DNA from: Escherichia coli
GTDB lineage: Bacteria; Pseudomonadota; Gammaproteobacteria; Enterobacterales; Enterobacteriaceae
Direction: 5' to 3' (one strand)
Length of the DNA stretch: 64,000 nt
NCBI RefSeq assembly: GCF_011045215.1
Contig: NZ_CP049201.1
A program made the translations under genes and the position numbers. This document shows, one piece after another, positions 1-1,007 of the stretch. Every line of letters starts with the position of its first letter. The first letter of the stretch is position 1. The notes below the pieces were generated by a model. It made no database searches, was not told the origin of the DNA, and was given only the letters and a program-made list of their open reading frames with translations.

Positions 1-2
1 AA

Positions 3-152
3 GATCTCGGTCATGATTTGCAGACTTATCTGCAGGACATGTCTCCGGAATTCGTGGAGATTCTGGGGGGGAGGAAGGATTTTTACAAACACAGTGAGGA
101 GGTTGTCGGATACTGGGTGGAGGTGATTCGTCGTGCTGGTCTGAAAGCGTGA
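3..152 (+). CDS. 3' end of an unidentified gene entering from the left edge (partial)
   Basis: Open frame from window edge to TGA at 150-152 (...GYWVEVIRRAGLKA*); no family recognised by eye. Confidence 0.25.
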   Translation, partial: DLGHDLQTYLQDMSPEFVEILGGRKDFYKHSEEVVGYWVEVIRRAGLKA

Positions 153-1007
153 GGTTAAGGCCTGACAGGATGCTGCAGCCCTGAGTGGTGGAACAGGTCA
201 TAACAAATTCAAAAGGGAGGTATGGTGAGCAGTAAAAAAGAGAAGAACACACCACACCGTATGATGTTGCTTTCAGGGGCGTTTATGGCGTTCAGAATGT
301 TCAGGTATGGAGTGGCATTTTGAGGATCCCCGGTTACCGATGATACTGATGCCGTTTCACCTGGTGGAGATGGCAGCGGCTGATGAAGAGGTTATGTACC
401 ACGGACGCCCGGGGATACTGGCGTTACTGATTAAACGCAGTCGTCGCTGCGATCTGTGATGCAGATGGGCATCTAAAGTATGATGGTAACATTATAAAAC
501 GGGTCCTCAGGCGACAATAATTCAGAATATTGTGTAAGATGCGGGAACAGGGAGGACTCTGGCTGCAGGTTGCTGAATATCGTGTGTAACATGGTTGGAC
601 GAAGAATCAGCGACTACGGCGTCTGTAAACTTCATAAAAACCCAGACAACTGAATGTGTGAGGTATTTCCGGGGCTTCCGTAAGAAAAACAGCATGACTG
701 AGGCCCACATAACCTCATGTTTACGCTGTCAGGAAACCGGGGGCAATGCTGTACTGAATAATCATTCCTTCAATTTATATCAGTCTGCCCCTGTACCAGA
801 AAAATTCTGGAAGGATGCCAGAATCTTCCATTTTGCGTCGTCAGTTTCATAGGGTGAGATTTGAGAAATCTGGTCGATATTACAGGTGTTCGTTCGTCCC
901 TGTCGGATATCCCGGTTGCGTTATCATCCTTATGTATTGTCCCTGATGTGGATGGCGGGAGGATCCCTCTCCCGCACCTGGTAAGAAGCCTGAAAGTTTA
1001 TGTGAAT

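Follow-up and report, generated by a model that had tools for sequence, protein, structure and literature searches.

A probable remnant of an rpn nuclease gene downstream of a helicase-ankyrin gene in an Escherichia coli island

The window analysed here, a stretch of 64,000 nucleotides of Escherichia coli DNA, begins within the 3' end of a gene on the plus strand. Translation gives the last 49 codons of this gene at positions 3..149 and a stop codon at 150-152, the encoded peptide being DLGHDLQTYLQDMSPEFVEILGGRKDFYKHSEEVVGYWVEVIRRAGLKA. An earlier note, made from the letters of the DNA, had described the left edge as the 3' end of a gene with a 49-codon C-terminal fragment, and both observations were borne out. 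The gene, of which 1..152 lies in the window, encodes a 970-aa SF1/UvrD-like helicase with ankyrin repeats (WP_187655799.1-type). In the C5 record 'plasmid A' the 49 codons are DNA-identical to the end of the gene for WP_187655799.1 (CDS at 3240-6152 of locus L001), and both this record and that of RM8082 have a 970-aa 'ankyrin repeat domain-containing protein' whose end corresponds to the left-edge ORF. The helicase motifs and the ankyrin repeats sit to the left of the window and were read from the near-identical C5 copy. Pfam finds UvrD-helicase, AAA_19, and Ank in this protein, with the UvrD/SF1 core at approximately residues 160-575 and the ankyrin repeats at approximately residues 700-775.

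The fragment is the C-terminus of a full-length member of a family of SF1 UvrD-like helicase-ankyrin proteins of about 950 aa, for which at least 3,540 homologues were found at E ≤ 1e-10. Homologues that are about 50% identical over their full length occur in Halomonas, Nitrococcus, Endozoicomonas, and Salmonella. Members of the family stand alone, in contexts that vary and are often islands; PADLOC gives only weak GajB-like matches, to the helicase core. When the C-terminal ends of homologues are aligned, the 49 residues in the window turn out to form a variable tail past the last conserved motif, which is poorly conserved in the family. The 3' end of the gene also contains a homopolymer of seven G (65..71, plus strand). 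RM8082 has six G at this place and its gene is annotated as frameshifted; the run is a possible slippage on/off site, or possibly a hotspot for sequencing errors.

The helicase gene is followed by an intergenic spacer (153..224), which contains a GGGAGG Shine-Dalgarno motif at 215..220, and by an ORF of 33 codons at 222..323 including its stop codon, all on the plus strand. The earlier note had given the peptide exactly, but had placed it at 223..324, a frame which has stops and is off by one. It had also recorded the GGGAGG motif, which is present; the distance of 5 nt was wrong, as 1 nt separates the motif from ATG222, and 4 nt separate it from the in-frame GTG225. PGAP calls no gene at 222..323. 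Its call is a 50-codon ORF at 307..459 on the plus strand, annotated as 'hypothetical protein' (WP_157913999.1), and this protein is found on 313+118 contigs, all of them from E. coli and all with the name 'hypothetical'. An MFS transporter gene on the minus strand (1008-2420) converges on the region, and an interval of about 550 bp (460-1007) precedes its 3' end. The ORFs in this interval (85, 64, and 62 aa) have no NCBIfam match, a blastn search of the interval against plasmids gave nothing past the near-identical islands, and its DNA relatives are confined to the island type of C5 plasmid A and RM8082.

What the DNA between the two flanking genes once encoded can be read from other E. coli genomes. 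Window 1-291 matches 91 complete genomes at approximately 82% identity, or 101 with a more sensitive search (e.g., Eco889 and EC958), and in those roughly 90-100 genomes an orthologous helicase gene is followed by the same spacer and then by an annotated, intact Rpn family gene. In Eco889 the orthologous helicase has 949 aa, and the homologous spacer leads to an intact gene for a 309-aa Rpn family recombination-promoting nuclease, which matches PF04754 with an E-value of 2.7e-72 (243 bits) and TIGR01784 with 175 bits. The DNA of Eco889 aligns without a break over the helicase 3' end, the spacer, and the first 67 nt of rpn. Over the 49 helicase codons the two sequences differ by eight synonymous and ten non-synonymous codon differences, while the spacer of the window is homologous to that of the intact-rpn loci (blastn blocks 151-173 and 191-291) and has an insertion of 13 nt relative to Eco889. 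In this alignment GTG225 is the start codon of the homologous intact rpn gene. Eco889 reads AAGGGAG-ACAGG-GTG at the same place, and its AAGGGAG aligns with GGGAGG in the window. Since both the start codon and the motif align, the ribosome-binding site that had drawn attention to the 33-codon ORF is the ancestral one of rpn. The alignment further indicates that ATG222 is a derived codon, situated in what was formerly the spacer between the rpn ribosome-binding site and the rpn start codon.

The rpn remnant extends over 225..478 on the plus strand, as delimited by blastn blocks, tblastn, global alignments, and a protein alignment with RpnA. Approximately 254 nt are left of a gene of approximately 930 nt, and the homology stops near 472-478, at about nt 590 of rpn. 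Three collinear blocks were found by blastn. Window 191-291 corresponds to rpn -33..67 with 84% identity, window 279-316 to rpn 277-314 with 87% (E 1e-8), and window 353-471 to rpn 467-589 with 67% (E 2e-4). The matching protein blocks obtained by tblastn lie in three different frames and are collinear with those of blastn.

Set against intact rpn codon by codon, the window lacks 1 nt near 251 and has one extra nucleotide in its run of G (275-278). These lesions are followed by the junction of an in-frame deletion of 222 bp (74 codons) at 279..291 on the plus strand, where a single hybrid copy, GCGTTTATGGCGT, remains of an imperfect direct repeat of 13 nt whose two copies occupy nt 55-67 and 277-289 of rpn. 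Past 316 the loss of 14 nt exposes a TGA at 321-323, and a 108-nt in-frame deletion at approximately 351-361 lies between GCTGTTTYAYC repeats. There are also a 3-nt deletion and a 1-nt deletion near 456; the searches yielded no intact parent, so that how large the smaller lesions are depends on the allele used for comparison. In total the remnant has three frameshifts and four internal deletions, and the 3' third of the gene is gone. Both large deletions fall at short imperfect direct repeats which are found in intact or less decayed alleles.

The middle blocks show only about 67% DNA identity to the rpn gene of Eco889. A nearer relative is the allele downstream of a third type of the helicase gene (locus L021, helicase 85% identical), with which the window shares LPLMILML, FHLVDMAV, and MHY; here too rpn is broken, into pieces of 112 and 78 aa. 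A degenerate DNA pattern for VMYHGRPGI had no matches (0) in 100,044 species genomes, so this search gave no intact parent allele.

Neither family profiles nor searches of large protein collections recognise the remnant as Rpn. Pfam finds nothing, even at E 10, in the 33-aa ORF, the 50-aa ORF, or an 85-aa frame-corrected peptide. With the latter as query, both a set of 5.8 billion proteins, searched by word index, and one of 1.84 billion representatives, searched with phmmer, return nothing but the 50-aa ORF. Fainter signals, independent of these searches, lead to Rpn. When a 54-aa middle piece was compared by tblastn with 7.3 Gb of plasmids, the hits were the piece itself and two rpn loci only (E 5e-5 and 3e-3). 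Among the 18,950 models of NCBIfam the sole matches are two Rpn equivalogs, at collinear profile positions and with an E-value of 0.03. These are below threshold, the remnant scoring 13-14 bits with RpnA/PRK09956 against a cut-off of 583. A blastn search for distant relatives of window 200-1007 among 5,426 E. coli genomes gave the two near-identical islands, and otherwise matches to the first 92 nt only. Rfam detects no RNA family in window 1-1200 at E 1. Decisive for a descent from rpn is the combination of synteny, given by the orthologous position behind the same helicase gene and spacer, with collinear nucleotide homology; the remnant matches the L021 allele as well.

The make-up of the 33-codon ORF follows from the lesions. 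Its first codon is the new ATG, and rpn codons 1-9 supply codons 2-10. The next nine of the 33 codons (11-19) derive from rpn codons 10-19 but are out of frame, whereas codons 20-32 (AFMAFRMFRYGVA) are in the ancestral frame again and correspond to rpn codons 93-105 across the 222-bp deletion. The 14-nt deletion produced the last codon, 33, and the TGA. Read from its start, the ORF uses the ancestral ribosome-binding site and start region of rpn, leaves the rpn frame at the 1-nt deletion and regains it at the 1-nt insertion. It then spans the slippage deletion of 222 bp, which is in frame by accident, and ends at the TGA exposed by the loss of 14 nt. The 50-codon ORF at 307..459 is the +1-frame continuation of the same pseudogene, covering approximately rpn codons 107-191. 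The alignments indicate that WP_157913999.1 is a fragment of an rpn pseudogene, and a propagated mis-annotation.

The activity of RpnA requires D11, D63, E82, and Q84, the catalytic residues of its PD-(D/E)XK nuclease (PMC5350276). In a protein alignment of the frame-corrected remnant with K-12 RpnA and two other intact Rpn proteins, the equivalents of D63, E82, and Q84 fall inside the 222-bp deletion, which thus removed the PD-(D/E)XK core. The equivalent of D11 survives only as TPYD, with a change of H to Y, and in a frame that the 33-codon ORF does not read. The remnant does keep several residues which are invariant in RpnA and the two other Rpn proteins, namely TP.D, AFRM.RY, HLV, D.E.M.H.R, and DLM. 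No match to PF04754 or TIGR01784 exceeds the curated cut-off, and in place of an uninterrupted ORF of about 290-310 codons the longest are those of 33 and 50 codons, in different frames. RpnS is a C-terminal antitoxin that is made from an internal start at M244 of RpnA and blocks the toxic full-length nuclease (PMC10400941). The region encoding RpnS, with its internal start, is wholly absent from the remnant, the homology ending at about rpn codon 197 and no C-terminal rpn block being detected by tblastn in window 1-1200. With both the nuclease core and the RpnS region missing, it is predicted that the remnant cannot act as a toxin, an antitoxin, or a defence nuclease.

It is accordingly the authors' firm view, held with little doubt, that 1-152 is the helicase-ankyrin 3' end, that 225 to about 478 is a dead and heavily deleted gene of the Rpn (YhgA-like, PD-(D/E)XK) family, and that the 33-codon ORF is an accidental frame across its first part. 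The region is an ordinary, unannotated pseudogene of a known family and not a new small protein.

Among 5,426 complete genomes of E. coli, only C5 (on its 214-kb 'plasmid A') and RM8082 (on the chromosome) match window 1-1000 at 99.4-99.7% identity. In seven further loci the helicase gene is each time followed by the 50-aa ORF and the MFS transporter gene, and the 33-codon ORF is never called. One copy of the locus (L013) has lost a further 62 bp just past the remnant, equivalent to window 471-532. A comparison of ten copies gives two SNPs in the 102 nt of the ORF and 11 in the remaining approximately 905 nt. The SNPs in the ORF are at 264 (Met/Leu) and at 267, the latter synonymous and private to the window. 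As the SNP density is no lower than in the flanks and one of the two SNPs is non-synonymous, conservation of the ORF does not exceed that of the DNA around it. The ten copies are too similar for a test of selection, and nothing suggests constraint on the ORF.

The first of the other explanations takes the 33-codon ORF for a true gene of a small protein, for instance a membrane or toxic peptide that is charged at its N-terminus and hydrophobic in its tail, translated from the strong GGGAGG motif. A small protein was one of the two options raised in the earlier note. The motif is perfect and just upstream, but both it and the start are inherited from rpn and ATG222 is just 1 nt away from it. The C-terminal half of the peptide is hydrophobic in sequence, and the ORF is open in all ten copies; these are more than 99% identical, and the open frame hence carries no weight either way. 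Against a gene speak also the nine codons that are out-of-frame rpn, the stop that stems from a deletion, and the non-synonymous change in one of the two SNPs. The exact 33-aa peptide is absent from approximately 15 billion predicted proteins, and no homologues of it were found in the protein collections used, including those of 5.8 billion and 1.84 billion sequences. ORFs of this size with Shine-Dalgarno-like motifs are moreover at or below random expectation. The 64-kb window has 311 ORFs of 33-59 codons, ten of them with a Shine-Dalgarno-like pentamer upstream, while first-order Markov random sequences of the same composition lead one to expect about 538 and about 16, respectively. A 33-codon ORF with such a motif is by itself not above chance; what is above chance is the homology to rpn genes. 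A small-protein gene is therefore considered very improbable.

It might instead be that the 50-aa ORF is real and has the 33-codon ORF as its leader, the two together making up a miniaturised, functional protein derived from Rpn. The 50-aa ORF is a RefSeq hypothetical protein present on more than 430 E. coli contigs, and it keeps conserved Rpn residues around a DDE-like motif. However, it begins at an internal out-of-frame ATG without a Shine-Dalgarno sequence, lacks the D/E/Q core, carries the 108-nt internal deletion, and ends at a frameshift. It matches no family, and the RM8082 version has two changes from R to C. We would be as surprised by such a protein as by a small-protein gene. That the 33-codon ORF arose by chance in unrelated intergenic DNA without any gene ancestry agrees with its length and motif being within chance and with the lack of Pfam and Rfam matches, but is hardly credible given the collinear DNA and protein homology to rpn at the orthologous position.

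If the region is the rpn pseudogene that we take it to be, some expression may nevertheless persist. A scan for promoters and terminators found no promoter-like site in 1-1200 and no terminator-like hairpin from the helicase stop to 804. Since no terminator follows the helicase gene, the helicase mRNA probably extends over the remnant, which would form its 3' tail. With the strong Shine-Dalgarno motif, low-level translation may occur from GTG225, or less plausibly from ATG222 with its 1-nt spacing, and would give a functionless peptide. More speculatively, the inherited strong ribosome-binding site could still drive translation of a peptide of 32/33 residues with a basic N-terminus and a hydrophobic tail, and this peptide or the 50-aa piece could have been co-opted, e.g., as a small membrane peptide or to modulate other Rpn proteins of the cell. 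This is thought very unlikely; if true, it would account for the persistence of the configuration on hundreds of E. coli contigs.

For annotation the consequence is simple, as the region should carry a single rpn pseudogene. Current annotations pass over the 33-codon ORF and list the 50-aa piece as a 'hypothetical' protein on over 400 E. coli contigs. The locus also offers a small and clean case of how a toxic gene of the Rpn toxin-antitoxin/defence type is erased, by slippage deletions at short repeats that took away the catalytic core and the antitoxin region, with the ribosome-binding site surviving. The loss of rpn beside the same helicase gene has occurred more than once.

A conserved two-gene defence module of helicase-ankyrin and rpn was considered as well and rejected. 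Five distant helicase loci, from Enterobacter, Halomonas, two Salmonella, and Nitrococcus, were checked and have no Rpn neighbour. Upstream of the helicase, the loci of Nitrococcus and Enterobacter have genes of about 185 aa, which are unrelated to the one of 187 aa upstream of the helicase gene studied here. As the distant members stand alone in unrelated contexts, the adjacency is particular to these E. coli islands.

The 64-kb window as a whole is a mosaic E. coli island. It contains the MFS transporter, an M20 aminoacylase, an EAL-domain gene, and ISEc8, along with glycosyltransferase and deacetylase genes and an operon for chaperone-usher fimbriae. A type VI secretion cluster extends from about 40.6 kb and is 96-97% identical to STEC chromosomes. 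No tRNA gene was found in the 64-kb window. The first 25 kb match the 214-kb C5 record labelled 'plasmid A', and part of them (38% of the query, over 1-15491) matches the RM8082 chromosome.

Upstream of the helicase gene, C5 and RM8082 have genes for an AlpA-type HTH protein, YagK/YfjJ-domain proteins, a YfjI-family protein, SIR2, and SLATT, together with much IS debris. From these neighbours the locus is classified as a CP4-57-like mosaic island of E. coli, as they resemble the set of AlpA, YfjI, and YagK/YfjJ that is typical of cryptic prophages and integrative islands of the CP4-57 type. The earlier note had suggested a remnant of the cryptic-prophage kind as its second option. The region is indeed a remnant, namely the decayed 5' end of rpn in an island of CP4-57 type, but not one of a prophage gene; the 33-codon ORF goes back to an rpn gene that travelled with the island.

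The closest known system is the Rpn family itself (YhgA-like; PF04754 Transposase_31, TIGR01784, COG5464), which includes RpnA-E of K-12 and the plasmid-borne RpnP2 (PMC5350276; PMC10400941). The remnant shares with these genes the position, the ribosome-binding site, the GTG start, the homologous blocks, and the motifs, and its setting, a mobile island rich in defence genes, is one that other rpn genes have too (PMC10400941). It differs from functional Rpn in having about 254 of about 930 nt left, in being frameshifted, and in lacking both the catalytic core and the RpnS region. Two further rpn copies broken by frameshifts were seen, at 3208-3805 of locus L021 and at 1080-1989 of locus L005, the latter on the IncF plasmid CP098976. 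They belong to the same family, have the same or a similar position and are likewise inactivated by frameshift, and the decay of rpn seems to be frequent. The copies in L021 (112+78 aa) and L005 (144+181 aa) retain most of their coding sequence, while the copy in the window is much more eroded.
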